A stretch of 64,000 nt of DNA from Candidatus Poribacteria bacterium (GCA_965208675.1 OZ242351.1:3328001-3392000), one strand, 5' to 3'. Shown: positions 51,576 through 64,000, numbered from the stretch's first letter. Translations and numbers: made by a program. The notes: a model not told the origin generated them from the sequence alone.

Positions 51576-52058
51576 ATGCCAACTACAGTCACTGTGGCTG
51601 AGATTGCGGATTTGATTGGTGTCGAAGACACCATTATCAGGAGAACTATCGAACGGCGCGACGACGATCTTCAACCCTATTTACATGAAGACCCTGAATA
51701 CAACGCCCAAAACCAATCCGATACAGATGCACCGGTTTCCGAGGTGCCAACACCTCTGCTGGATTTAGAAGGGCTGCCGCTTCTAATTACCAAACTTTCC
51801 TTTAATATTCCCACATTGGACATTATCGAAAACCTTGCCTGCCAAGTGTTGCACCTCACAGTCCTGCGAGAGGAAAAGACAGACCTCACGAGTAAAAACC
51901 GAGAACTGCAAGGTCAAAATGCAAAACTTCAAGCGCGTATCAATGATTTACAGCATCAGGTCTCGGAACTGCAAGGGGAATTAACCCGGCAAGCGGAGAT
52001 GCAATCTCGTAGTTGGATTCAGAAACTTTTCAGACGCCCCAATTCTGAGGGTTCTTGA
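51576..52058 (+). CDS. Hypothetical protein with possible N-terminal HTH-like segment and C-terminal coiled coil
   Basis: 'TVAEIADLIGV..TIIRR'; heptad-rich tail ending 'SWIQKLF'. Confidence 0.65.
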   Translation: MPTTVTVAEIADLIGVEDTIIRRTIERRDDDLQPYLHEDPEYNAQNQSDTDAPVSEVPTPLLDLEGLPLLITKLSFNIPTLDIIENLACQVLHLTVLREEKTDLTSKNRELQGQNAKLQARINDLQHQVSELQGELTRQAEMQSRSWIQKLFRRPNSEGS

Positions 52059-52159
52059 AGTTTTCTCGTGTCGTCCAAGCGGCTTTTCCCCGTACCCGTA
52101 TGGTCCAATTATAGCATAGTTCACTCAGCTTATCCATACTATTGGAATCCTCGCCGTAG

Positions 52160-52867
52160 ATGAAGAATCGCAATCAAATCGTCGCACTTGCAGCGGTAAT
52201 ATTGGGTTTGGTATTTCTCTATCAGCCGCGTTATATTCTGCTCAAGGGGATTGCGTTGCTGCTTTTAACCCTGGCTGCAATCTTGTCAGCGACCTCCTTT
52301 TCCAAAAAACGAATTGTCGAAGGCATCGCTGCAATTGGCCTTGGCACCGGATTCATATTCCTTTATCTGCCGGTATCAAAGGACACGCCCATCGTTTCGA
52401 CCCTACACGGGTCGGCGTTTCATCTCCTGTTTGCCAGCGCTATCGCGTTTGGTATGACAACCCGCCTGAAAAAAGCAGCGGCAATCGCCGCTGCAGCTAT
52501 CGCCGTCATTGGACTGGTGTTCCTTTATCAACCTTACGTATTTCTGTTCACGCTGGACATGCCGGAGGAATTCTATTCGCTCAGACAGTTGGAAGATGTG
52601 ATTCGTAACGAAGGTCACCAACTGAAAGAACGTCTTTTCCATCTCGCTCTCCTTCACAAGGATTCCGCTCTTCATTTGATGCTGGCAGGCATGATTATAG
52701 TTGCGGTTGTTTCCCCGCGGAAGGTGTTAATCGAACGCATGTCGCTTGGCGGGATTACACTCGGGTTGGTCTTTCTCTGTCAGCCGTTTTGGATCCTACT
52801 CTACCAAACAGGCTTCCAAATTCTATTGGGCGGGTTAACGGCATTCATCGTCGTCGCGCACCGGTAG
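52160..52867 (+). CDS. Hypothetical membrane protein with internal repeats
   Basis: Repeated 'GLVFL(Y/C)QP' helices. Confidence 0.7.
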   Translation: MKNRNQIVALAAVILGLVFLYQPRYILLKGIALLLLTLAAILSATSFSKKRIVEGIAAIGLGTGFIFLYLPVSKDTPIVSTLHGSAFHLLFASAIAFGMTTRLKKAAAIAAAAIAVIGLVFLYQPYVFLFTLDMPEEFYSLRQLEDVIRNEGHQLKERLFHLALLHKDSALHLMLAGMIIVAVVSPRKVLIERMSLGGITLGLVFLCQPFWILLYQTGFQILLGGLTAFIVVAHR

Positions 52868-53199
52868 GATTAGCGAACAAGCGGTCATTATCACGCCTAC
52901 TCGGGGCATTCCACAGTTCAATGACGGGTGCCCTCTCAAAACGGGAAGCGTGACGAATATTGCCTACGACCTCCCCCGCAGTCCCCCTTGCCAAAAAGCC
53001 GCTTGTTGACAAAGGGCCGACGACACTTGCAGTTTCCAATGCCGCGGCAAATCCAATCGCTAAACACATGTCTCGCGACACCCTCGCAATGAGGCATTCA
53101 AAATTCATGGTAGGGTATCGCTCAGTCCAACGGAACCAACACAGCGGATACGGTGTCTTGTCAGAATTTATTCTAACTCAATCTCTGAAGGAATTAGCA

Positions 53200-53406
53200 A
53201 TGAAAGTTAAGCGGTCTACTGGCATAAAAAGAATTACAATCTTCTGCACATTAATGTTTCCTATCCTTTTTTTGATATTGAATGCGTCATTGGCAAGAAA
53301 TCCTGATGCTAGCTGGGGGTTCACAATCCCGTTGGTAATTCTGCCATTATTCGTGTACAAGGTGGGATATTGGATAGCGGACGGATTTCGACGGGACAAA
53401 GAGTAA
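53200..53406 (+). CDS. Small membrane protein
   Basis: AAGGA RBS, ATG 53200, two TM helices. Confidence 0.5.
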   Translation: MKVKRSTGIKRITIFCTLMFPILFLILNASLARNPDASWGFTIPLVILPLFVYKVGYWIADGFRRDKE

Positions 53407-53478
53407 ACGCCTTTGTTGCCTGTGAAATGATATGCAGCAGCGGTGTTGATGCCTTAAGACTCAAATTTAATTCTCTGG

Positions 53479-54135
53479 CTAGCGCAGTTGCATTATTGCA
53501 TCACACGCTCTCTTTGAATCGTTTCCGTTAAAATCGGGCGCTTGTTCAGAATTGAGTGCCCCATTGTCTTCTAAAGCGGCGGGTTTCCAGGGTTTCCAAG
53601 TGCCCTTTGGTCCATCAAATTTAAGTACCTCTTTCATTCTATCGGCTTCAAATGCGCAATAAAATGAATTAGAATGAACGGCAATCATTGGATAATCTTC
53701 ATACCTGTAGCCATTGGTTTTTAGCCAAAGCCCAAATACGACCGACCGATGATTGCCATCTTCCACTCGGAACGAACAATCAGGATTACGTTTCTTTTCG
53801 CAGCCTAGTTCACAGTTGCGGATTAAAATTCTAGGCATCATGCCGTAATCAAAATCGTACCCCAAGGCAACTAGCCGTTTAAACCACGTTCTAACACCAT
53901 TAACCCTATCTGCCTCGGGCATTATATTGTTCAAAATTTCCCCAGGATTTGAATATGTCCGATTGTCGTTCTTTTCAAAAACACTGTCAATAACTTTGGA
54001 TATCTTCATTCCGCACCACTCATCATCATACTCAAATCGATCTTCAGGATTAGATGAACGCGGATAGAAAAACATCAAATTCCAAAAATCCTTCTCTTCC
54101 AAAGCAAATTTGGTAATAATGTATTCCTGATTCAA
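53479..54135 (-). CDS. Hypothetical protein with a ParB/Srx-like DGNHR motif
   Basis: GGAGG RBS; 'FRVEDGNHRSV'. Confidence 0.6.
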   Translation of the reverse strand: MNQEYIITKFALEEKDFWNLMFFYPRSSNPEDRFEYDDEWCGMKISKVIDSVFEKNDNRTYSNPGEILNNIMPEADRVNGVRTWFKRLVALGYDFDYGMMPRILIRNCELGCEKKRNPDCSFRVEDGNHRSVVFGLWLKTNGYRYEDYPMIAVHSNSFYCAFEADRMKEVLKFDGPKGTWKPWKPAALEDNGALNSEQAPDFNGNDSKRACDAIMQLR

Positions 54136-54341
54136 GATTGGCCTCCTATGTTTTGCAATACTAATGCAAAAGTTTCATGGCAACAATATACACCTAATGC
54201 CATCAAAAAATAGATTAAAGCCACGAAAAAATATAGAGTCTCGAATACCCAATCGGCGTTCCGCAGTTTCTTGTCGAGGATGTAACTTAGGATTTTTCTC
54301 CTTGTAACAATACCCACAATTACTGTTTGAGACACTGCCAT
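54132..54341 (-). CDS. Small membrane protein, shortened paralog of 55755..56084
   Basis: 'IVGIVTRRKILSYILDKKLRNADWVFETL' aligns with 'IIGFVTKRKPLSYILDKKPRKIEWAFETL'. Confidence 0.5.
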   Translation of the reverse strand: MAVSQTVIVGIVTRRKILSYILDKKLRNADWVFETLYFFVALIYFLMALGVYCCHETFALVLQNIGGQS

Positions 54342-54368
54342 TGCAATCCGTGTGGTAATGTAGCGTTG

Positions 54369-54812
54369 TCAATGGGTTGTTGCAGGGGCTACCGTGTCTC
54401 GAATGTGCCTTCCGAGGCGTTGATAGTAAATAAATTTAATTGTGGCACCAAATAAAACATCGTACAAATCTCCCAGATTTGGCATTACAACAATATACAC
54501 AATCACTACTGGAATTAATGCGATAGCAAATCGAATGGATACTACCCAGCCTAAAATGAGATATTTTTTTATTAGGTTGAATCCCTCTTTTCCGCCGTTC
54601 TGCCGATACACGTAGTACGTACCGCCGATTGCGATTATAACGGTTAGGCACAGCGATAGGAAGCCATACCCATTCGATAATCTATCTGCTTCAGAGTAGG
54701 AGCCAAGAGCGAAAAGAACGGCGTAAATTATCAAATAGGGCAGTGCTTCCCTGTCACTAAGAGAATTGGTCCTCAACTTGTGTTTCAGTGGATGGTAGAA
54801 GACAAAATACAT
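54369..54812 (-). CDS. Hypothetical membrane protein
   Basis: GAGG RBS; about 4 TM helices; 'NGGKEG..LIKKY..LGWV'. Confidence 0.7.
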   Translation of the reverse strand: MYFVFYHPLKHKLRTNSLSDREALPYLIIYAVLFALGSYSEADRLSNGYGFLSLCLTVIIAIGGTYYVYRQNGGKEGFNLIKKYLILGWVVSIRFAIALIPVVIVYIVVMPNLGDLYDVLFGATIKFIYYQRLGRHIRDTVAPATTH

Positions 54813-54906
54813 TACCTCAACATACCTCCTTCCTTATTTCAAGAATTAAAGTATTGTTGCAACAGAGAGCAGTCGAACGAAAGAGCCGCGGGGTGCGTTT
54901 TCGCGG

Positions 54907-55305
54907 TTAACTATTTAGTTTTCGGCGTAATGCCGGTCCAAGTAAAATCACCGTCGCGGATCCTACAAATAATCCATTGACTCCACTCAAGATTGTAGAG
55001 TTGAGGTCAGGCGAAACGGTCAAAATTCCAAAGATAAAACCGAACACTCCGCCAAGCAGGAATCCAATCGTATACAACACTTGTGCGGCTCTATTATGTC
55101 CATCGTTTAGTCTGTATGTCCATAGGATTCCGAGAAACCCGCCGTACACTGCCCCGATGGTTGCCAGGACAGGGATGGCACTACCCGGAACTTTGTCGCT
55201 CGACGGAATGATTAATGGGAGCGCCCACAATAACAGCGGCGTTAAAACGGCGCCGCCAAATATGCAAGTGAGGAGCTTGAGGAATATTAATCTACGAAGT
55301 TTCAT
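54907..55305 (-). CDS. Small Gly-rich 4-TM membrane protein
   Basis: AAGGAGG RBS; paralog of 55333 ('ILPS.D.V...IP.L...GAVYG'). Confidence 0.72.
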   Translation of the reverse strand: MKLRRLIFLKLLTCIFGGAVLTPLLLWALPLIIPSSDKVPGSAIPVLATIGAVYGGFLGILWTYRLNDGHNRAAQVLYTIGFLLGGVFGFIFGILTVSPDLNSTILSGVNGLFVGSATVILLGPALRRKLNS

Positions 55306-55332
55306 TTTGACAAATCCTCCTTTTTGCGGGAT

Positions 55333-55710
55333 TTACTTTTTTCTTTTTCGCCAAAAAAATAGTAGAATGGGGATGCTAATAAAGATAGCTGCTCCGCTAC
55401 TAGCAAATGCAGAGTTGTGGTCAATCGAAATTCCGTAGATAAAGCCGTAAAATCCACCCAGCATGAAACCGATGCCGGAAAAGACCATCGCTATTCTGTT
55501 CTGTTCAATCTTGTGCCTGTATGCCCGCAATATGCCGATAACTATACCGTAAACCGCACCCATACCAGTAAGGGCGGGTATTTCGGCAACCCTCACGTTA
55601 TCGGTTGATGGTAGGATAACGGTGCATACCCACGTGAACAACGTTAGGAACGCCGCACCTCCCGCCGCGCAGACGAGGATATTGAGAACTGCTTGTGCGC
55701 GAAATGTCAT
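55333..55710 (-). CDS. Small Gly-rich 4-TM membrane protein
   Basis: GGAGG RBS; paralog of 54907. Confidence 0.72.
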   Translation of the reverse strand: MTFRAQAVLNILVCAAGGAAFLTLFTWVCTVILPSTDNVRVAEIPALTGMGAVYGIVIGILRAYRHKIEQNRIAMVFSGIGFMLGGFYGFIYGISIDHNSAFASSGAAIFISIPILLFFWRKRKK

Positions 55711-55754
55711 AACGAATTTTCCTCCATTGCTCTATTCCATCGTGTCATGATTCG

Positions 55755-56084
55755 TCACCTGTTTTTGTAGTTCGCGTATATGAGCAGACAGAAGTACGCC
55801 ACACTCATTATCAATTGCGCTGAAATAAAGACAAAAATAAGCTGATACGGACGCGATTGACTCACATCGGGAACCATTAGTTTCCAGTAAAACAACAGCG
55901 AAACACCGATTAAAGCCAAGAGAATACGTAGAGTCTCGAATGCCCATTCGATCTTCCGCGGTTTCTTGTCGAGTATGTAACTTAGGGGTTTTCGCTTTGT
56001 TACAAAGCCTATAATTAGATAGATACAAGAGAAGATGAGTGCGGTTGCACCGAAAGCGGCGAATACTAGTAGTATCATGACCAA
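55755..56084 (-). CDS. Small membrane protein
   Basis: AAGGAGG RBS; about 3 TM helices. Confidence 0.65.
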   Translation of the reverse strand: MVMILLVFAAFGATALIFSCIYLIIGFVTKRKPLSYILDKKPRKIEWAFETLRILLALIGVSLLFYWKLMVPDVSQSRPYQLIFVFISAQLIMSVAYFCLLIYANYKNR

Positions 56085-56177
56085 AGCCTCCTTATAGTGC
56101 TGGCAACCTCGTTACCGTGGTGGGGCGATTGAGAAACGTAGGCATGCCGGTATCGTGTAGTCATGAAGGGGTGTCCT

Positions 56178-56525
56178 TCACTTTGAGCGGAATGCGCCGA
56201 TGGCCACGAGCGCCGGTACTGTACCGATATACGCACCCAATATAAGGGCTAACCCTAACAGGTTGTCGTTTCCCACGATAGCCGTAAATACACCTCCCAA
56301 TACAGAACCAGTCACAGGAAAGGCGATAAGGACTTGCCGCGCCGTTTTGTGATTGATTGCCCAAGATATACCGCAACACGCGCCGGCAAGCAGGCACAAG
56401 TTTACTATTCCATAGCTGATTGGGTGTAAGGCTACGTATAACACTCCGCCCGTGAGTGCGCCTCCGACGGCGCAGGTGAGAATTTTGACAAAAACAGGAA
56501 ATGGAATCAGGTGGCGTCTTGGCAT
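56178..56525 (-). CDS. Small Gly-rich 4-TM membrane protein
   Basis: AAGGAGG RBS; 'KILTCAVGGA' resembles 'KLLTCIFGGA' of 54907. Confidence 0.68.
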   Translation of the reverse strand: MPRRHLIPFPVFVKILTCAVGGALTGGVLYVALHPISYGIVNLCLLAGACCGISWAINHKTARQVLIAFPVTGSVLGGVFTAIVGNDNLLGLALILGAYIGTVPALVAIGAFRSK

Positions 56526-56901
56526 TCGAAAGAACCTCCTTTATTTGCGGGTTAGTACCTGTTGGCGGGGGTAGTTCTGCACGCCTAGCTATGGCTTGGC
56601 AATCCGCAAAATAAGATGCCAGCCTACACCCAGCGGCGAGGATGAAAAAGCAAGACGTTGGCGGCCTGTCCGCTATGTGTAAAATTTAGCACACATTTTA
56701 ACGAGCGTCAAGGATTTCTGCCTAACTTTTAATTCCTTGGGCGGCGGAAAACACTGTCGCCGTCGCTATTCGCCCAGTTGACCAATTTTCAGGGGAGAGT
56801 TTGTTGGAGGGAAATTTGGCTTCGCTTTGGGTTCGTTTCGCAAAATGACGGGAATAAGGCTAGCGGTTTTCGGGGCATTTGCAGATTACAAGTTTATCAG
56901 C

Positions 56902-57267
56902 TTTTGTAGGTTGGGTAGAGCGGGTACACCGAAACATGCCCATTATAACCAATCGATTTGTAGGCTAACTTTGTGCAAGATATGTGGGCCGCAGCGAAGC
57001 CCAACGATCAACCGACCGAATACGGAGGGCGATAGTCTTCGTATTTCATAACCTCCGCCACTCCAAAACACATTCCACCTCCCCAATTACCAAACACCCC
57101 CCTTTTTTATTCGAATCAGCCTAGTGGCGGCATCTGTCAACAGGTTACCCGAACGTTCCAAAAACGATGGGTTTTGGAAAAGACTAAAGGAAAACTATCG
57201 CCCTCCCTCTTCGGTCGGTTGATCCTTCGCTATTCGCTCAGTTGATTGCTCTACCCAACCTACAAAA
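56902..57267. mobile_element. REPIN/MITE-like element, copy A
   Basis: Terminal inverted arms TTTTGTAGGTTGGGTAGAGC and GCTCTACCCAACCTACAAAA; about 270 bp highly similar to copy B; contains two inverted copies of the 32-bp repeat. Confidence 0.8.
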
Positions 57268-57360
57268 ACCCGTCCAAACAGGGTTCTAGATTCTATTCGG
57301 TGGGTAAACCGCATGCATCGTCCTCGCGCATCGGTAGGAATTTCTGGATTGCCCATGTTT

Positions 57361-57912
57361 TTAGGATGGGGTGTGCGCCCAAGTGCGGAGTTGGCGATGA
57401 TCATCCGGCGGGGCGCCGTTTTGAAGCCAATCTAGGGGTTCTTCTTCTGTACGGTCTGGATTCACCCAAACAATGTGTTGGATTTCGCCAACACGTTGAG
57501 TAGCGCGGGCAAAACAGCCCCGGACAGTTTCATCAAGAGAGATAATGGTTTGGTCAGTTACTAGCGCTGCTTCGAGGAGGTGGAAATCCTTCCACATCGC
57601 TTTGACCTCATTTTCACGGGATGTTGAAGTTTCGATTTTATTGCACAACGCTTGGTTCAAAGCCGATCCGACATAATGAAATCTCTTTCTAGCAACCATC
57701 GATTTCAGCCATGTGCGTGCAAACACCGATCGAATCCTATTCCATTCCGCCGAAAGTTCGGGGGTCATGACAATGTGATGCCGGCATTCGGTCCGAAACG
57801 ATTCAAGAAATTCGGTGCAGTTGATTGATACCGAAGCCGTTGCCTCCTCTCCGCCGGCAGCCCGTCCAACCGAGACATTCACAACAAGCCGCTTGAAATT
57901 CGTTGGCCGCAT
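57361..57912 (-). CDS. PIN-like hypothetical protein coupled to the AAA ATPase
   Basis: 'LVVNVSV' at the N-terminus and 'KDFHLLEAALVTDQTIISLDE' resemble PIN acidic motifs; start lies 1 bp after the ATPase stop. Confidence 0.55.
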   Translation of the reverse strand: MRPTNFKRLVVNVSVGRAAGGEEATASVSINCTEFLESFRTECRHHIVMTPELSAEWNRIRSVFARTWLKSMVARKRFHYVGSALNQALCNKIETSTSRENEVKAMWKDFHLLEAALVTDQTIISLDETVRGCFARATQRVGEIQHIVWVNPDRTEEEPLDWLQNGAPPDDHRQLRTWAHTPS

Positions 57913-57913
57913 A

Positions 57914-59218
57914 TCATGCTCTTTCAGCCAAACGCAATTGGGCTGCGTTTAGATAACGGCTCTGTGCCTTCAGATCGACATCGTCAAAGTCCTCGGGCCA
58001 GTCCCCGTAAGCCCCCGCCTCGTCGAGATCTGCACAGTTGATTTCGGTGGCGCCGTTTTCGCGCCGTGTGAACCAATGTAGTTTCACCAAATTCGGAGAA
58101 AGGTCTCCTTCGGCAACGAACGTTTGAACCGCCAAAAGCAGCAGCGAACTGTGCGTTTCCGCAACGACGCGAACGCCGCGTTTCGCCGCATCTGCCAGTA
58201 TTTGCGCCAACTTGACTTGTGCACGCGGGTGGAGGTGCATCTCCGGCTGTTCCAGATAGACCAACTGCCCCGGTTCCGCAACAATCAGCGCTACTAATAT
58301 AGGCAACACTTGGGACACACCGCATCCCACATCGGCGATGCTGACCATGTCCGTTTGAGCGGTGCCGCGGTGAGGAAGGCGACCGACTTGCAGTTCGATG
58401 CGGGCGTCCCCGATTTTTTTTGTACCCACCCTGCCGGTAAGCCCAAGCGTGTGAAGAGCATTGGCTAACGTATCCAAGTGTTCATCTGTTGTCTCCTGCC
58501 AACTGTGAATAATACTCGCTACGTAATTCTCAAATGTGCCGAGATATCGTGGACCGGTGCTGGTTAGTTTGTAGAGGCGTTCTGGATTGCCACGTAGTCC
58601 GGGGAGGTGAATACAGTTGACAATGTTAAACGCGAGGTCATGGGTAAAGTCTACCACCTTATGACGATCTTGAGATTCCAAATGCAAAAAACATCGAGAG
58701 CGCCCTACGACATCAAGATCTTCACGCAAATCTTTGGGCATCGAATCTTCTTCAGCCAGCATTTTGATTTTTTCAACCGACATCTCAGGATACAGGGTAA
58801 TGGACTTGAAGGACACCTCCAACGGTTGGTCAGTCTCTAATTTTCTTTCTCTAATCATTTCGGAAAGTTCAATTCCACTTGCCCCTTTTCTGAAAGTCGT
58901 TCTCACCGAAATAGACTCATCACTCTCAATCCGAAGCCGAAAATACTCCGCCCCTTTTTCACCGATTAACTTTGACAAGAATTGCGCCGCCGACGTAAAC
59001 TGCGCATTTGGGCCATCAATCAACAACGGTCCCGGATCATACGGCGCTTCCAGTGTCTGCTTCAGCATCAATAGCGGTTGCATGATGCTCGATTTGCCGG
59101 AGCTATTCGCACCGGCAAGAAGCGTCAGCGGACGGATGTCAATTGCGCACTCGTTCGCGAGTGACTTGAAGCCGCTCACAGTTATCTTGGTAATGCCTTC
59201 GATCGTTTCCTTCGACAT
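57914..59218 (-). CDS. ABC-type AAA ATPase (AAA_15/AAA_21 with DUF3696-like C-terminus)
   Basis: 'GFKS', Walker A 'GANSSGKSS', 'DVGCGVSQVLP', 'EQPEMHLHP..Q', 'ETHS', 'G....WPEDF.D'. Confidence 0.88.
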   Translation of the reverse strand: MSKETIEGITKITVSGFKSLANECAIDIRPLTLLAGANSSGKSSIMQPLLMLKQTLEAPYDPGPLLIDGPNAQFTSAAQFLSKLIGEKGAEYFRLRIESDESISVRTTFRKGASGIELSEMIRERKLETDQPLEVSFKSITLYPEMSVEKIKMLAEEDSMPKDLREDLDVVGRSRCFLHLESQDRHKVVDFTHDLAFNIVNCIHLPGLRGNPERLYKLTSTGPRYLGTFENYVASIIHSWQETTDEHLDTLANALHTLGLTGRVGTKKIGDARIELQVGRLPHRGTAQTDMVSIADVGCGVSQVLPILVALIVAEPGQLVYLEQPEMHLHPRAQVKLAQILADAAKRGVRVVAETHSSLLLLAVQTFVAEGDLSPNLVKLHWFTRRENGATEINCADLDEAGAYGDWPEDFDDVDLKAQSRYLNAAQLRLAERA

Positions 59219-59287
59219 GAGTGAAACGCTCCTTTTCCTCTGGTAAAAATGAGACAACCATCAGGCCGCATCGTGGTAGCTTATCAC

Positions 59288-60559
59288 TTACGGTTGCGGA
59301 GAATTTGATACTGGACTGATTTGTTCTGACAGGTTTGCAGCGAGGACGTTTTCGAACGATACGTTCATGTTTGTCTCCAACTCTTTCGCAGCCGTTCGGT
59401 CTAATCTGAGGTTTTTAAGTGATTCTAGCAGTAACCACGTCTCGCCATGGTTATTATCCGTGTCGGCATAATTGGGATTCAGTTTTATGGCTTTATTATA
59501 GTCTTTAACGGCGCGGTCAACCTCACCTTTGACATCGTAGGCGATACTGCGATTGTAATAGGCATCTGCATAATCTGAATTAAGCCGTATCGCTTTGTCA
59601 AAGTCAGCGATGGCACGGTCAACCTCGCCTTTGCGGCCGTAAACCAGGCCACGGCAGCAATATGCGTCGGCGTGATTCGGCTTTAACTGTATGGCTTTAT
59701 TATAGTCTGTGATGGCGAGTTCATACTCGCCTTTATCATCTTGAATGACGCCCCGATTATGATATGCGTCGGCGTCATTTGGGTTCAAATGTATAACCTT
59801 ATTGTAGTCTTCGATGGCAAGTTCATACTCGCCTCTGTGTCGATGAGTCAAGCCTCGATTGTAATGGGCATCGGCATAATTGGGATCCAGTTGTATGGCT
59901 TTGTTGAAGTCTTTGATGGCAAGGTTATATTCGCTCATTTTATCGTAAACATTGCCCCGGTTGTTATACGCTTTAGCGTCATTCGGTTCCATTTGAATTG
60001 CTCGGTTATAGTCTACAATGCTGTGGTTGTACTCGCCTATGTCAAGGTACGCAGCCCCGCGGTTGAAATAGGCCTCCGGGAATTCCGCATTAAGTTCGAT
60101 TGCTCTGTTAAAGTCGCAAATAGCCCGGTCGTAATCTCCATTGTCCATGTAGAAAACGCCCCGGCTGTAATAGGGGTAGGCGTTATTTGGATTTAATTCT
60201 ATGGCTTTGTTAAAGTCGGTGATGAAATTATCATAATCGCCTTTTTGATGGTAAACCAAACCACGAAAGTAATAGACGTCCGAACATGGGTTCAGTTCCA
60301 TTACAGCGTTAGTTTCCTCAAGGGCTAGATCGTATTCTTCAAGTAAGTAATACATTAAACCGCTCAATGAACGTACTTTGTAAATAAGGTCTTTGTTCTC
60401 ACCCTGCGCTTTGGCGATGCTTTGAAGTGCTAACAAAAATGCGACGGAGTCACCGTCTTTTTGGTATTCCTCTATAGAAACTTCGAGATAGACGATTGCC
60501 TCCTCGCGGTCGGCAAGCCTTTCGACTAGGTAATCGCGGTAGTTTCTCATTCGCCTCAT
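59288..60559 (-). CDS. Fusion of an addiction-module antidote N-terminal domain with about 9 TPR repeats
   Basis: 'YRDYLVERLADREEAIVYLEVSIEEYQKDGDSVAFLLALQSIAKAQG' followed by 34-aa 'AY.NRG..Y...G.Y..AI.D.N.AI.L.P' repeats; ATGA overlap with the toxin gene. Confidence 0.85.
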   Translation of the reverse strand: MRRMRNYRDYLVERLADREEAIVYLEVSIEEYQKDGDSVAFLLALQSIAKAQGENKDLIYKVRSLSGLMYYLLEEYDLALEETNAVMELNPCSDVYYFRGLVYHQKGDYDNFITDFNKAIELNPNNAYPYYSRGVFYMDNGDYDRAICDFNRAIELNAEFPEAYFNRGAAYLDIGEYNHSIVDYNRAIQMEPNDAKAYNNRGNVYDKMSEYNLAIKDFNKAIQLDPNYADAHYNRGLTHRHRGEYELAIEDYNKVIHLNPNDADAYHNRGVIQDDKGEYELAITDYNKAIQLKPNHADAYCCRGLVYGRKGEVDRAIADFDKAIRLNSDYADAYYNRSIAYDVKGEVDRAVKDYNKAIKLNPNYADTDNNHGETWLLLESLKNLRLDRTAAKELETNMNVSFENVLAANLSEQISPVSNSPQP

Positions 60560-60894
60560 TTCGACTGCTCCTTGTATTCCCGCCAATAGGCTTTTGCCCG
60601 TTTTATGTCTCGAACTTGTGAAGATTTGTCGCCTCCGTAAAGTAGCAGCACAAGGGTATTTCCAATTTGTCCGAAATAGACGCGGTAGCCAGGACCAAAT
60701 CGGTAACAGAGTTCAAATACACCACCACCAACTGATTCGCAGTTACTAAAATTGCCAGATTCGATGCGGTCTATTCCGGCTTGAATTCGAGTTCGCGTTT
60801 TTAAATCGGGAATTGATTCAAACCATTGGGTATAGGGCTCTTGACCATTAGGTGTACGGTAGATTTCTAGTTCTCTTGGCTGTACAACGGGCAT
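60556..60894 (-). CDS. RelE/ParE-superfamily addiction module killer toxin (HI1419-like)
   Basis: 'P...W...L.D...R.RI', 'GNF....SVGGGVFEL...FGPGYRVYF', 'LL.GGDKSSQ.RDI..AK.YW'. Confidence 0.92.
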   Translation of the reverse strand: MPVVQPRELEIYRTPNGQEPYTQWFESIPDLKTRTRIQAGIDRIESGNFSNCESVGGGVFELCYRFGPGYRVYFGQIGNTLVLLLYGGDKSSQVRDIKRAKAYWREYKEQSK

Positions 60895-61221
60895 TTACGA
60901 TATCAAAGCTACGTGTAAAGACTAAACAGAACATCGGCACGAGACACTCAATTTGGAGAATTTTCAATAGGGATATGAATTAGTCCGCCTGTAATTGCGA
61001 TTTGTACATTATACCACACGAAAATCGGGCGTGCAAATGGTCGAAAACGCGCTGATTAGCAGTTTCCACGAATTCTGCGCACTAATTCGTTCTGTTTCCT
61101 CTGTTGAATAGGGTGCTTGATTGGAAATCACGGTTTGGGTTCGATTTGGCTTCGTTTCGCAATAATTGGTGATTAGGCTAACGGTTTCCGATGCTTCTGC
61201 AACGCCGCAAATTTATTTGGC

Positions 61222-61591
61222 TTTTGTAGGTTGGGTAGAGCGGGTACACCAAAACATACCCATTATAACCAATCGATCTGTAGGTTAACCTTGTGCAAGA
61301 TCCGCTGGACGCAGCGAAACCCAACGATCAACCGACCGAATAGGGAGGGCGATAGTCTTCGTATTTCATAACCTCCGCCATTCCAAACACAATCCTCCAC
61401 CCCAATTACCAAACAACCCCCTTTTTTTATTCGGATCGGCCTGGTAGTGGCATCTGTCAACCGGTCACCCGAACGCTCCAAAAGCGTTGGGTTTCGCTAC
61501 ACCATAACCATTCGCCAAACAACTTCTATATAAGAATCGCGTACAAATTACTGCGTCTGTTCATCATACCCGCTCTACCCAACCTACAAAA
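61222..61591. mobile_element. REPIN/MITE-like element, copy B
   Basis: Arms TTTTGTAGGTTGGGTAGAGCGGGTA and TACCCGCTCTACCCAACCTACAAAA; inner arms GCGAAACCCAACG and CGTTGGGTTTCGC; direct repeat of copy A, 4320 bp away. Confidence 0.82.
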
Positions 61592-61734
61592 ACTTTCATA
61601 TTTCGGTTGTGAAGGGGTTCGATTTCGGTTCTGAGAGGTGTGGGCAGTGACCCCAATTGAAAATCACGTTCGCGATTTGATAACCCGCTTCAGGCAGGAT
61701 TGCAAGGTAGGTTTTATGGACTCGCAAAACCGTC

Positions 61735-61764
61735 TTGACAACAGAAGTGAGTATGTACGATAAT
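61735..61764 (+). promoter_or_regulatory. Putative sigma70 promoter
   Basis: TTGACA-18 bp-GATAAT upstream of 61844. Confidence 0.45.
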
Positions 61765-61843
61765 GCTCTTTTTCACACACAACCGAATTTGACCGTTGGG
61801 CGGTGATAGATATGCAGGGCAAACTAGGCTTTAATCACTATCT

Positions 61844-62308
61844 ATGAATGGAGAAACGATGAGGTATTATTTTATAAACACTGATGTGAAAACGTTGGGT
61901 TATAGTCCACATGCGACGTGGGTTAAACACAATTACGCCTTCACCGCCGGAGATTATGAAAAATACGGCGAACGACGGCTGGGAAATTTGGAAACGGGCG
62001 ATGTTCTGTTTATGTATGTAAACAATGTCGGTGTAGTTGCGGTGGGTGAAGTTACGGCGCCGTGGGCGGGCGGAAGCTACAGCGGTGCGGATCGGTTGGT
62101 ATATCGCCGATGCAAGGCTGAATTGAAAGAATACAGAATCCACGTTGACTGGTATCTTCCGACCGTCAACAATCCGATTAGTATTGAAGAATTGAAGCAA
62201 CAGGACGGCGGCTGGACGCCGTCGCAAACACTCCATCACATAACGAATGCAGCCTTTGCTGCGAATCTTCACGAAGAAATACGTCGAAGGTCATCAAGAG
62301 GGTGGTAA
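61844..62308 (+). CDS. Hypothetical EVE/PUA-like domain protein
   Basis: 'RYYFINT', 'L..GDVLFMY....GVVAVGEV', 'IHVDW' pattern typical of EVE/PUA-like folds. Confidence 0.6.
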   Translation: MNGETMRYYFINTDVKTLGYSPHATWVKHNYAFTAGDYEKYGERRLGNLETGDVLFMYVNNVGVVAVGEVTAPWAGGSYSGADRLVYRRCKAELKEYRIHVDWYLPTVNNPISIEELKQQDGGWTPSQTLHHITNAAFAANLHEEIRRRSSRGW

Positions 62309-62494
62309 GGCGGACTTCACTCAGAACAAAGAATGAAGATGCGAAAAAATTGGCAATTGTAGGCATGAAACGATTTACGTGATGTTGTGTGGCACGTTTG
62401 CAAGTGAGTATGCTGTGGTCCCAAATCAGATGGTCATTAGGATGCGGTTGCATTTGGCACGTCATTCGCCTATGACGACAAGGAGCACATTGCC

Positions 62495-62899
62495 TTGGCA
62501 AGAATTGAAAAACTGACAAATTTTGCTAGAGAACACTTGGATCCTTGCGAGGAAATTCTTGCTGTGGTGAAGGGAACCTATGCGGGAAAAATGTGCGGAA
62601 GAGCTATCGCCAGGTCCGGTATATTGTTGGCTACAGATATGAACGTGGTCTTGTACGGCAAGAGGTGGACGGGTTTTGACTTGGAATTTTTCCCTTACGA
62701 CACCATATCGTCAATCGAAATCCGCAAGGGCTTTGGATCGATATATCGCGTGTCTTTTCGTGTATATTTTGACATAATATATGTGAGCAACATTCGTGCC
62801 GACAGTTGGTCTGACCATGGGGATGTAACGCATTTTGTTGAAATCGTAAAGCGCATGATTATGGGGGATAGCCCCGTAAAGAGCCCAATCGGATTCTGA
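62495..62899 (+). CDS. Bacterial PH domain (bPH_3/YokE-like) protein
   Basis: AGGAG RBS; 'L...EEILAVVKG', 'GILLATD..V', 'FPYDTISSIE..KG'. Confidence 0.72.
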   Translation: MARIEKLTNFAREHLDPCEEILAVVKGTYAGKMCGRAIARSGILLATDMNVVLYGKRWTGFDLEFFPYDTISSIEIRKGFGSIYRVSFRVYFDIIYVSNIRADSWSDHGDVTHFVEIVKRMIMGDSPVKSPIGF

Positions 62900-63060
62900 A
62901 CAGGATTAGTTTGAACGATGTAGAACACTCGCACAGCTGAAATCGGAAAGAAAAAATACTGGCGGAGAGTACGAATTATTTGAAAAGAAACTATTGACTA
63001 TGTAAGGCATGAAGGCATTAAAAGAAGCTTTTGTCTTTAAACCATAATGGAGGATTTCAG

Positions 63061-63669
63061 ATGTTTAGCGCACAACATTGGCAGATTAAGTTGGTTTATG
63101 TCGGGTTCGGCGGGTTTTTGATGCTTATCGGAATGCTCTTTTCGCCGGTTACGGCGCTTAGAGACAAAAAATTCGGGGATATTGAATGCACTAGCTTAAC
63201 CGTCGTTGATGCCGACGGGGCGGAAGGGTTGTTGCTCAATGTCTCTGAATATGGCGGGCGAATCTTCGTAGGCGGGAATGATGGGACGTCGGCGGTGTTT
63301 CTTTCCATCAACGAAGATGGTGGGAATGTCGTTGCCCAAGGGAAAGATGGAAAATCCGGCGTATTTCTTGATGGAATGGTTAAGAGCGGCGGTGGCGGGT
63401 CTGTTTCTGTACTGAACAGCGACGGGAAACCGGGAGTTGCTCTTGCCGGTATGGATAAGAGCGGCAGCGGCGGGTGGGTTACTGTGCAGGGCAAAGATGG
63501 GAGAGCAGTGGTGATGCTCAGCACAAATGACCATGGTGGGCTTGTCTCTTCCCATAGCAAAGATCGGCAATCGTCGGTAGCGCTTGGCATCAATGAGCAT
63601 GGAGCATATGGAAAGGCTAAGGGTCGTGACGCGGAGTTCGTGTGGGACAAGAACGGGTATCGACAGTGA
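63061..63669 (+). CDS. Membrane-anchored or secreted protein with ~23-aa Gly-rich beta repeats
   Basis: GGAGG RBS; hydrophobic N-terminus; 'FGDIECTSLTVVD'; repeats 'GG.V.V.GKDGK..V.L'. Confidence 0.75.
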   Translation: MFSAQHWQIKLVYVGFGGFLMLIGMLFSPVTALRDKKFGDIECTSLTVVDADGAEGLLLNVSEYGGRIFVGGNDGTSAVFLSINEDGGNVVAQGKDGKSGVFLDGMVKSGGGGSVSVLNSDGKPGVALAGMDKSGSGGWVTVQGKDGRAVVMLSTNDHGGLVSSHSKDRQSSVALGINEHGAYGKAKGRDAEFVWDKNGYRQ

Positions 63670-63744
63670 AGAGCAGTGGAGAGTTGCTAGTTGCCAGTGG
63701 TCAGAGAAAACTGTCCACAATTTCTAATTCAAGGAGGAATTGAA

Positions 63745-64000
63745 ATGAATACCAAACACCATTTGGTTATAAGCGGCATTATTGGCGGGGTCATCGGCAG
63801 TTTGTTCACCGCGATGTTGGTTTCACCGGTTACGGCGGATAGGGATAAGTTCGGTGAAATTGAGTGCACTAGTTTAAAGGTTGTTGATGCGGAAGGGAGC
63901 ACATTGGCGCTAGTTTCGGGCGGCGAGCGCGGCGGCGTGGTGCAGGTCTTTGATAAGGAGAGTCAGGCGGTCGTGAATCTAAATGTCGAAGCCGTCGGGA
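63745..64000 (+). CDS. Paralog of 63061..63669, runs off the window end
   Basis: AAGGAGG RBS; MNTKHHLVISGIIGG...SPVTADRDKFGEIECTSLKVVDAEG. Confidence 0.75.
   Translation, partial: MNTKHHLVISGIIGGVIGSLFTAMLVSPVTADRDKFGEIECTSLKVVDAEGSTLALVSGGERGGVVQVFDKESQAVVNLNVEAVG

Follow-up and report, generated by a model that had tools for sequence, protein, structure and literature searches.

An antitoxin-TPR/RelE gene pair beside an NsnB-like ATPase and a PIN-fold protein in Candidatus Poribacteria: a possible elaboration of a two-gene defence module

Do four adjacent genes in the genome of a sponge symbiont form one anti-phage cassette, or do a toxin-antitoxin (TA) pair and an ATPase-nuclease pair simply share a site? 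This question is raised by a locus within a 64,000-nucleotide stretch of DNA (GCA_965208675.1 OZ242351.1:3328001-3392000; hereafter the window) from a Candidatus Poribacteria bacterium, a sponge symbiont whose genome is assembled as one 4.89-Mb contig. According to the open reading frame (ORF) calls in the window, all four genes are located on the minus strand, running from 60894 to 57361 in the same orientation. They encode a RelE/ParE-family toxin, a protein with an antitoxin-like head followed by an array of tetratricopeptide repeats (TPRs), an ABC ATPase and a PIN-fold protein; the first two are referred to below as the TA-TPR half and the last two as the ATPase-PIN half. An initial annotation had described the four genes as a candidate undescribed defence cassette, possibly mobilised or deleted by recombination between flanking REPIN elements. 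Our preferred reading, to which we assign a probability of roughly 0.5, is that the locus represents a lineage-specific elaboration of a two-gene ABC-ATPase plus PIN module of the HEC-03 or Menshen-NsnB kind. The core of such a locus is of a kind already known, and a four-gene defence cassette appears plausible for the lineage of the window.

The ATPase-PIN pair

Counts of gene neighbourhoods were based on 80 loci fetched by the PIN family. In 78 of these the gene immediately preceding the PIN gene encodes the ATPase; one of the two exceptions begins inside the gene and the other is a broken second copy. The pair was also kept at all six non-Poribacterial loci (cyanobacteria, Armatimonadales and others), and no DUF262/NsnA-like neighbour was present at these six. 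Most ATPase-PIN loci share one neighbourhood, and no upstream neighbour of the ATPase is conserved across the 80. The ATPase and the PIN protein are a tight, widely conserved pair, separable from everything upstream. Within the phylum the PIN gene is present in 96 of 176 genomes (76 of the 133 of high quality) and concentrated in two families, with 18/28 and 75/112 genomes, respectively.

Analysis of the ATPase with Pfam returned AAA_15 (6.7e-22) and AAA_21 (7.2e-22), as well as a DUF3696 tail that stayed below threshold (E 0.0079, 16.8 bits, cut-off 22). Of the PADLOC models NsnB scored best (2.7e-53), residues 22-427 being matched to profile positions 2-334 of 345. HEC-03B (1.9e-37) and PDC-M55A (6.9e-37) followed, the former as a partial match in two stretches, the best at residues 263-426, and AriA and GajA were matched more weakly. 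The Walker A motif GxNSSGKSS, the signature GxGxSQ, a Walker B followed by EQPE, and the motif ETHS are invariant in 41 orthologues. A search of the Protein Data Bank (PDB) with the ATPase profile retrieved only an OLD-family nuclease (1.4e-5) and an AAA ATPase (0.0022), over short stretches. As all the profiles that the ATPase matches best are models of defence ATPases, the ATPase-PIN pair is likely to act against phages, and the defence-type reading of the initial annotation appears reasonable. To call this half undescribed was too strong, since HEC-03 is a tested defence system composed of an ABC ATPase and a PIN protein.

Relatives of the ATPase occur in other settings as well. The same genome carries a third NsnB-like paralogue at about 669.8-671.0 kb (L095), 55% identical over residues 22-72 and 43% over residues 305-424, with no PIN gene of the window PIN family beside it. 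Forty-five long proteins with AAA_15/AAA_21 (P0306-P0350), some of them from Actinomycetota, contain in most cases DUF3696 and in most cases an N6 DNA methylase domain (PF02384); therefore, NsnB-like ATPases are fused also to methyltransferases. At two loci (L023:5179-6999 and L047:5197-6999) the ATPase ORF has an N-terminal extension of ~175 residues, neither TPR nor antitoxin-like, which represents a further type of fusion or, alternatively, an upstream gene read in the same frame.

The 183-aa partner of the ATPase had no above-threshold match in Pfam and none in NCBIfam or PADLOC, the sub-threshold match being EcoEI_R_C (E 0.0064). We collected 330 close homologues, and a profile search extended the family to 2142 cluster representatives (E 0.001 or better), named 'hypothetical protein' in the sources and found in Poribacteria and Nostocales cyanobacteria. 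An AlphaFold2 model built on a diverse alignment (A3) reached a pLDDT of 95.7 and was used in place of a model from a shallow alignment (A2), for which pLDDT was only 49. In a VIA-align structural search against representatives VapC21 ranked first (Z 10.2, 129 residues, root-mean-square deviation 3.1), and 35 of the first 36 rows were PIN-type domains (VapC, FitB, Nmd4, Nob1, SMG5/6, HARP). Foldseek against the PDB gave no match at E 0.001 or better, the best being HARP RNase P (3.6e-3) and VapC (5.2e-3). The protein thus models as a PIN fold, with weak agreement from Foldseek. D12, E56, D109 and D127 are conserved in the wider family and, placed on the predicted secondary structure, occupy the positions at which acidic residues are expected in the PIN topology. 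Prediction of a 1:1 complex of ATPase and PIN protein (447 + 183 aa, alignments A4 and A3) yielded scores of 0.08 and 0.02, below the mark of 0.32, an outcome that bears on binding in neither direction. The PIN orthologues (L011-L089) fall into two allele classes, ~50% identical, which occupy one syntenic site across genera, Asn standing at the first acidic position in 30 and Asp in 46. We considered whether the N12 variant tracks the presence of the TA-TPR half and rejected this, as most TA-TPR loci have Asp. A large unannotated PIN family (2142 representatives, no Pfam model) hereby gains a fold, a partner and a context.

Could the pair instead be a vertically inherited housekeeping or regulatory RNase module, for ATP-gated RNA processing or as a chromosomal addiction pair, with the TA genes unrelated to it? 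The setting of the pair has features that would suit such a role. Its neighbourhood is kept across two families, with Der-GTPase-, aminotransferase- and endonuclease-V-like neighbours (named by eye from their N-termini), the Poribacterial copies are 47-93% identical, and searches of 72,556 plasmid and 50,697 phage records gave no match to the PIN gene. The Oscillatoria pair has as its neighbour a gene whose N-terminal sequence, again by eye, resembles ribosomal protein S2. However, presence within genera is patchy (14/20, 30/40 and 44/65 genomes), the closest relative of the host (G033) lacks the pair, and broken copies, including stop-codon fragments, occur. The two divergent allele classes at one site and the exclusively defensive nearest profile matches of the ATPase likewise speak against a housekeeping function, which we regard as unlikely.

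The RelE/TPR pair and its relation to the ATPase

The toxin passes the NCBIfam model TIGR02683 (upstrm_HI1419) with E 2e-31 and 108.3 bits (cut-off 62.85). Its gene is single-copy in the host genome; the type is amplified in the phylum, with matches in 141 of 176 genomes and up to 12 per genome. The second protein shows eight or more TPR matches in Pfam (TPR_1, E 3.4e-82) followed by a tail of ~55 residues. Its first ~62 residues are 49% identical (pairwise E 3e-30) to the canonical 113-aa antitoxin at L102, which passes PF21716 (dnstrm_HI1420). The same model covers only positions 9-47 of 90 in the window protein, at 16.1 bits (cut-off 27). On this alignment the helix-turn-helix (HTH) half of an HI1420-type antitoxin, about profile positions 48-90, is seen to be replaced by about nine TPRs and a tail; DNA-binding autoregulation has therefore presumably been lost.

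We sampled 17 RelE-antitoxin pairs away from the ATPase, namely 13 pairs at 12 loci in other families and four loci in the window's family. None of them has a TPR antitoxin, the antitoxins being 113-160 aa long. When residues 1-66 of the TPR protein were compared with proteins of 232-741 aa, one protein among 28 candidates was recovered, by a word-based search that is insensitive for so short a region. In the canonical antitoxin (L102:2316-2657) the N-terminal half itself gave weak TPR matches (TPR_12 0.023, TPR_19 0.032), which hints that the antitoxin head may be a TPR-like helical hairpin able to continue the TPR solenoid. A sibling protein with an HTH_37 head (L012) passes the TPR-S family PF20308 (35.5 bits, cut-off 27.6), and PF20308 is listed for several fused TPR-ATPase proteins; TPR-S was absent from the 23 Pfam families listed for the window protein. 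The family label suggests a possible sensor role for the TPR protein.

The main evidence that the TA-TPR and ATPase-PIN halves may be functionally coupled is recurrent fusion. In the window the ORFs of the TPR protein and the ATPase are in frame with each other, with two stops between them. Short-read contigs of run X1 match 57217-60442 with zero differences, so these stops are not peculiar to the assembly. Elsewhere antitoxin head, TPRs and ATPase form a single ORF, of 936 aa at L013 and 862 aa at L112. Among 62 longer database relatives of the ATPase (784 aa or more, E 1e-20 or better), 17 combine TPRs with AAA_15/AAA_21 in one protein; they align to 94-98% of the window ATPase at 61-91% identity. 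All six of the 17 that were inspected open with an HI1420-type head. The fusions show two junctions: the tail is mostly kept in P0289 and P0290 and shortened in P0292, P0296, P0303 and P0305, as well as in L013 and L112. Five of the six inspected proteins retain intact ATPase motifs; the exception, P0305, is disrupted near its C-terminus. In addition, of the 19 same-family genomes with the pair, 13 have sequence of the antitoxin head or of the TPRs immediately 5' of the ATPase gene, and two non-homologous heads occur on one TPR and tail scaffold, the HI1420-type head with RelE and an HTH_37 head with a Gp49-family toxin.

An alternative is that two autonomous units, the ATPase-PIN module and a type II TA pair of unusual make-up, are independent neighbours in an intergenic hotspot of one Poribacterial family, and that the fusions are deletion by-products in a decaying island and no sign of interaction. 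Each half does occur alone, and the RelE type is, as described above, highly amplified in the phylum. The locus gathers other variable genes, namely an MmeI-like methylase, a Schlafen/AlbA_2 protein and small TA-sized ORFs, and decay is evident in a RelE remnant (L013), a broken ATPase without a PIN gene (G051) and antitoxin-head fragments (G044, G046, G038). Against this stand the fusions themselves, 17 database clusters and two loci, with two junction types and with ATPase motifs intact in five of the six fused proteins inspected. The confinement of the TPR-type antitoxin, found in 0/17 of the other RelE-antitoxin pairs sampled, and the two different TA heads on the same scaffold in the same position also argue against chance proximity. 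We consider independent neighbours possible, at well below even odds.

Several observations weigh against our preferred reading, that the four genes elaborate a two-gene module. RelE or TPR-head matches are missing within 7 kb at 73 of the 80 ATPase-PIN loci, and five of the 19 same-family genomes likewise have none near the pair (in the sixth the contig is too short). Conversely, the TA-TPR half occurs without ATPase-PIN in G030, with three TPR-tail genes at two loci, and on a contig of G042. Therefore, neither half needs the other. Adjacency is limited to one family, so that a single ancestral insertion is possible and the related genomes are not independent, and toxin genes are lost or broken in the TPR-ATPase loci of G052 and G055. 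The window PIN allele has Asn at the first catalytic Asp (N12; Asn in 30/76 full-length orthologues, Asp in 46/76); its nuclease activity may be weak or absent. The PIN models of the nearest known systems fail to match it as well: HEC-03A gave no match in the window PIN at E up to 1 and matched 2 of 72 relatives at E 0.0047 or worse, and NsnC gave none in the window PIN and one among the 72 (E 0.0028). Finally, absence from plasmids and phages together with a conserved syntenic site is unlike a highly mobile defence system. Of the four-gene unit put forward in the initial annotation, the coupling is thus backed by the recurrent antitoxin-TPR-ATPase fusions, and an obligate association is not borne out. 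Given the non-independence of the relatives and the existence of each half on its own, we set functional coupling at about an even chance. Literature titles and abstract openings contained no description of an antitoxin-TPR-ATPase system, a weak sign of novelty, as subscription journals were outside this scope.

Gene layout, flanking repeats and the surrounding island

The coordinates of the genes and of the flanking elements are compiled in Table 1. The identities assigned to the four genes in the initial annotation (RelE by TIGR02683, antidote N-terminus plus TPR, AAA_15/AAA_21 ATPase, PIN fold) were all recovered, and its spacing of an ATGA overlap and gaps of ~70 and 1 bp agrees with our calls: an internal ATG of the TPR ORF at 60559 creates the ATGA overlap with the RelE stop, the conserved ATPase start (MSKETIEG) lies 69 nt past the TPR stop, and the PIN gene begins 1 nt past the ATPase stop. 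An Rfam scan of 52000-64000 gave no match at E up to 0.1. The sequencing runs that contain related sequence are labelled sponge metagenomes.

Table 1. Positions of genes, domains and putative signals at the locus, in window coordinates
Feature	Position	Strand	Remarks
RelE/ParE-family toxin gene	60556-60894	-	112 aa; TIGR02683
Protein with antitoxin N-domain, TPR array and tail	59288-60586	-	432 aa from TTG 60586; 423 aa from ATG 60559
Antitoxin-like N-terminal domain of TPR protein	60401-60586	-	about residues 1-62; likeness stops at canonical HTH start
TPR array	59462-60379	-	about nine 34-residue repeats; 102-nt DNA periodicity
NsnB-like ABC ATPase	57914-59257	-	447 aa from TTG; probable start ATG 59218, 434 aa
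Stand-alone PIN-fold protein (as modelled)	57361-57912	-	183 aa; family without Pfam, NCBIfam or PADLOC model
Left repeat composite	56815-57272	.	hairpin element 56899-57270
Right repeat composite	61134-61596	.	hairpin element 61219-61594
Promoter-like site upstream of RelE gene	61008-61037	-	TTTGCA-18-TATAAT with TG, 10/12 matches; consensus match only
Terminator-like hairpin and T-run 3' of PIN gene	57269-57282	-	consensus match only

The four genes lie between two repeat elements of ~370-460 bp. The segment 56900-57174 recurs in the same orientation at 61220-61494, 4320 bp away, and BLASTN extends the match to 56815-57174 versus 61134-61494 (85% identity over 364 nt), a similarity far above chance within the genome (E 3.9e-100). 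Both elements are bounded by 20-25-nt terminal inverted repeats with an inner arm of 38 nt, and single-strand folding yields long hairpins (z -8.9 for the left and -5.9 for the right versus shuffles). Two directly repeated elements with inverted repeats at this distance had been proposed in the initial annotation and are indeed present. Their designation as classical REPINs does not hold. Like a REPIN they contain an inverted pair of short sequences forming a hairpin; however, the doublet is not itself the dispersed unit. Each element is a composite built on an 81-nt sequence that recurs across the genome, with 145 BLASTN matches (103 of at least 40 nt, 23 of at least 60 nt) in 99 clusters. 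The Y1 transposase family (PF01797) has four matches in the genome, three of them over cut-off, and no 81-nt unit lies within 3 kb of any.

Does recombination between these repeats mobilise or excise the four genes as a cassette? Two features would fit this idea: the full composites and their central 149 nt exist in just two copies in the whole genome, so that each composite is the other's only full-length copy, and homology to the related genome G034 spans exactly the interval between the repeats (57274-61165). However, G034 carries the four genes joined straight to the sequence left of 52870 and lacks the left repeat; its repeat units are found only on the RelE side, as a shorter cluster at the position of the right repeat. 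The left repeat itself forms the right end of a 4.4-kb segment (52870-57272) that is missing from both G034 and G035, and a joint in run X5 (52871 to 57341) bridges this segment. Within the window's genus, G035 has the ATPase-PIN pair only and G033, the closest congener (94% DNA identity), none of the four genes. In G033 (L091:2869-4375) 1.5 kb with a 205-aa ORF replace 53441-62598 (9.2 kb); the breakpoints lie outside both repeats, and a bPH-domain gene (window 62495-62899) is cut to 91 aa. A reliable repeat-to-repeat joint was not found in the sequencing-run contigs, all sides being 40 nt or less and inside the repeat. Together with the absence of repeat units near the Y1 transposase matches, these data leave mobilisation or deletion between the repeats, as initially suggested, very improbable. 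On sequence comparison the repeats are best regarded as dispersed intergenic elements in a hypervariable island rather than as the ends of a mobile unit. More generally, flanking repeats in repeat-rich symbiont genomes need not mark such ends.

The island shows further rearrangements. The 4.4-kb segment is flanked by 66-bp direct repeats (52803-52869 and 57273-57339, about 82% identical) and contains genes for a 218-aa protein (53479-54135) and for five small ones (54369-56525) that by eye resemble paralogous membrane proteins. An 'A-cargo-R' unit duplicated in tandem long ago would be consistent with the observed order, in which A' directly follows repeat R. Repeat units are also located close to both G033 junctions. 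A single 986-nt contig of run X6 (depth 4.75) joins 53356-53923 to 61383-61594 with ~205 nt between; from some relative, therefore, the four genes may be missing together with the membrane-protein genes, the left repeat and most of the right one.

A possible mechanism and comparison with known systems

If the four genes act together, the following sequence of events can be proposed. By analogy with the predicted NsnB-NsnC assembly and the genetics of HEC-03, an oligomer of the ATPase would hold the PIN RNase in check, or gate it, until a phage cue shifts its nucleotide state. The TPR protein would dock on the N-terminus of the ATPase, to which it is fused in frame in many relatives, and its antitoxin head would sequester the RelE-type mRNA interferase, which would serve as a second RNase arm. 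A single signal, perceived by the TPR array or by the ATPase inserts, could then release or activate both RNases and stop translation, resulting in abortive infection. This amounts to a 'split Menshen', in which a RelE or Gp49 interferase would be tethered, by a TPR scaffold whose antitoxin head can be exchanged, to the N-terminus of a PIN-holding NsnB-like ATPase, a model that we put forward tentatively and hold to be less probable than not.

Were this model true, one ATP-gated sensor would control two RNases, exchange of toxin and head on a constant scaffold would diversify the effector, and a type II TA pair would be wired into an ABC-ATPase immune complex in a new way. The combination of a TPR-for-HTH antitoxin with ATPase fusion makes it a testable hypothesis that a TA pair was recruited as an effector arm of such a complex, and the same hypothesis bears on the frequency of RelE-like RNases among Menshen effectors. 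The ATPase-PIN pair for its part would extend the HEC-03/Menshen group of ABC-ATPase defences to Poribacteria and cyanobacteria.

Among known systems the more distant likenesses concern single components. PARIS (AriAB), Septu (PtuAB) and Gabija (GajAB) also combine an AAA_15/AAA_21 ABC ATPase with a nuclease effector; however, their effectors belong to other families (Toprim, HNH and others, according to PMC12065111), and their profile matches are far weaker than that of NsnB. The TA pair resembles the HI1419/HI1420 type in its toxin model, in the overlap of the antitoxin gene with the toxin stop and in the homologous antitoxin N-terminus, and differs from it by the TPRs and tail in place of the HTH half. 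With TPR-sensor proteins the likeness lies in the L012 sibling and not in the window protein itself.

HEC-03 (Hma-embedded candidate 3; Payne et al.), the nearest published architecture, consists of an ABC ATPase and a VapC-like PIN protein; according to the accessible portion of the preprint (bioRxiv 10.1101/2024.01.29.577857), defence requires both genes and induction of the system is toxic. As in the window, an ABC ATPase and a PIN protein are encoded by two adjacent genes, the PIN protein has, in that portion, no antitoxin-like partner, and the window ATPase matches HEC-03B. Unlike HEC-03, the window ATPase scores higher on NsnB, its HEC-03B match being partial, and an antitoxin-TPR/RelE pair, not mentioned for HEC-03 in the same text, lies upstream.

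The closest likeness of the ATPase is to Menshen (NsnA-NsnB-NsnC; Li et al., NAR 2025), for which the consulted part of the paper (PMC12065111) reports NsnC effectors that are mostly BECR/RelE-like RNases and a predicted NsnB4-NsnC2 assembly in which the C-terminal tails of the ATPase clamp the PIN-like domain. In NsnB, according to the same part, E-N replaces D-E and GxG replaces SGG; the window ATPase has the GxG signature too and an altered Walker B pair, E-Q. A PIN-like partner is encoded directly downstream of the ATPase in both, and BECR-fold RNases, RelE in the window and Gp49 in its relatives, are the associated toxins. The genome also contains a canonical three-gene Menshen system (L094:1438-4980, about 2.020-2.0235 Mb; PADLOC NsnA 5.7e-142, NsnB 9.1e-111, NsnC 8.5e-53). 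With the NsnB of that system the window ATPase shares only 27% identity, which marks the window pair as a separate relative that has no NsnA. NsnA (ParB-DUF262 plus ParBDB) gave no PADLOC match at the locus, where the upstream protein is the TPR protein, and the PF03235 matches of the genome lie at four places outside the window. NsnC is composed of an inactive PIN-like domain and a C-terminal effector, whereas the 183-aa window protein consists of the predicted PIN fold only, and its family keeps the D-E-D-D residues that the inPIN domains of NsnC lack. Furthermore, the BECR RNase is a separate protein in the window, held, as we propose, by the antitoxin head on the TPR scaffold. The parts list of Menshen, an ABC ATPase, a PIN-like domain and a BECR-fold RNase, would thus be the same in both, the RNase being fused to the PIN-like domain in Menshen and tethered non-covalently, under our proposal, in the window.

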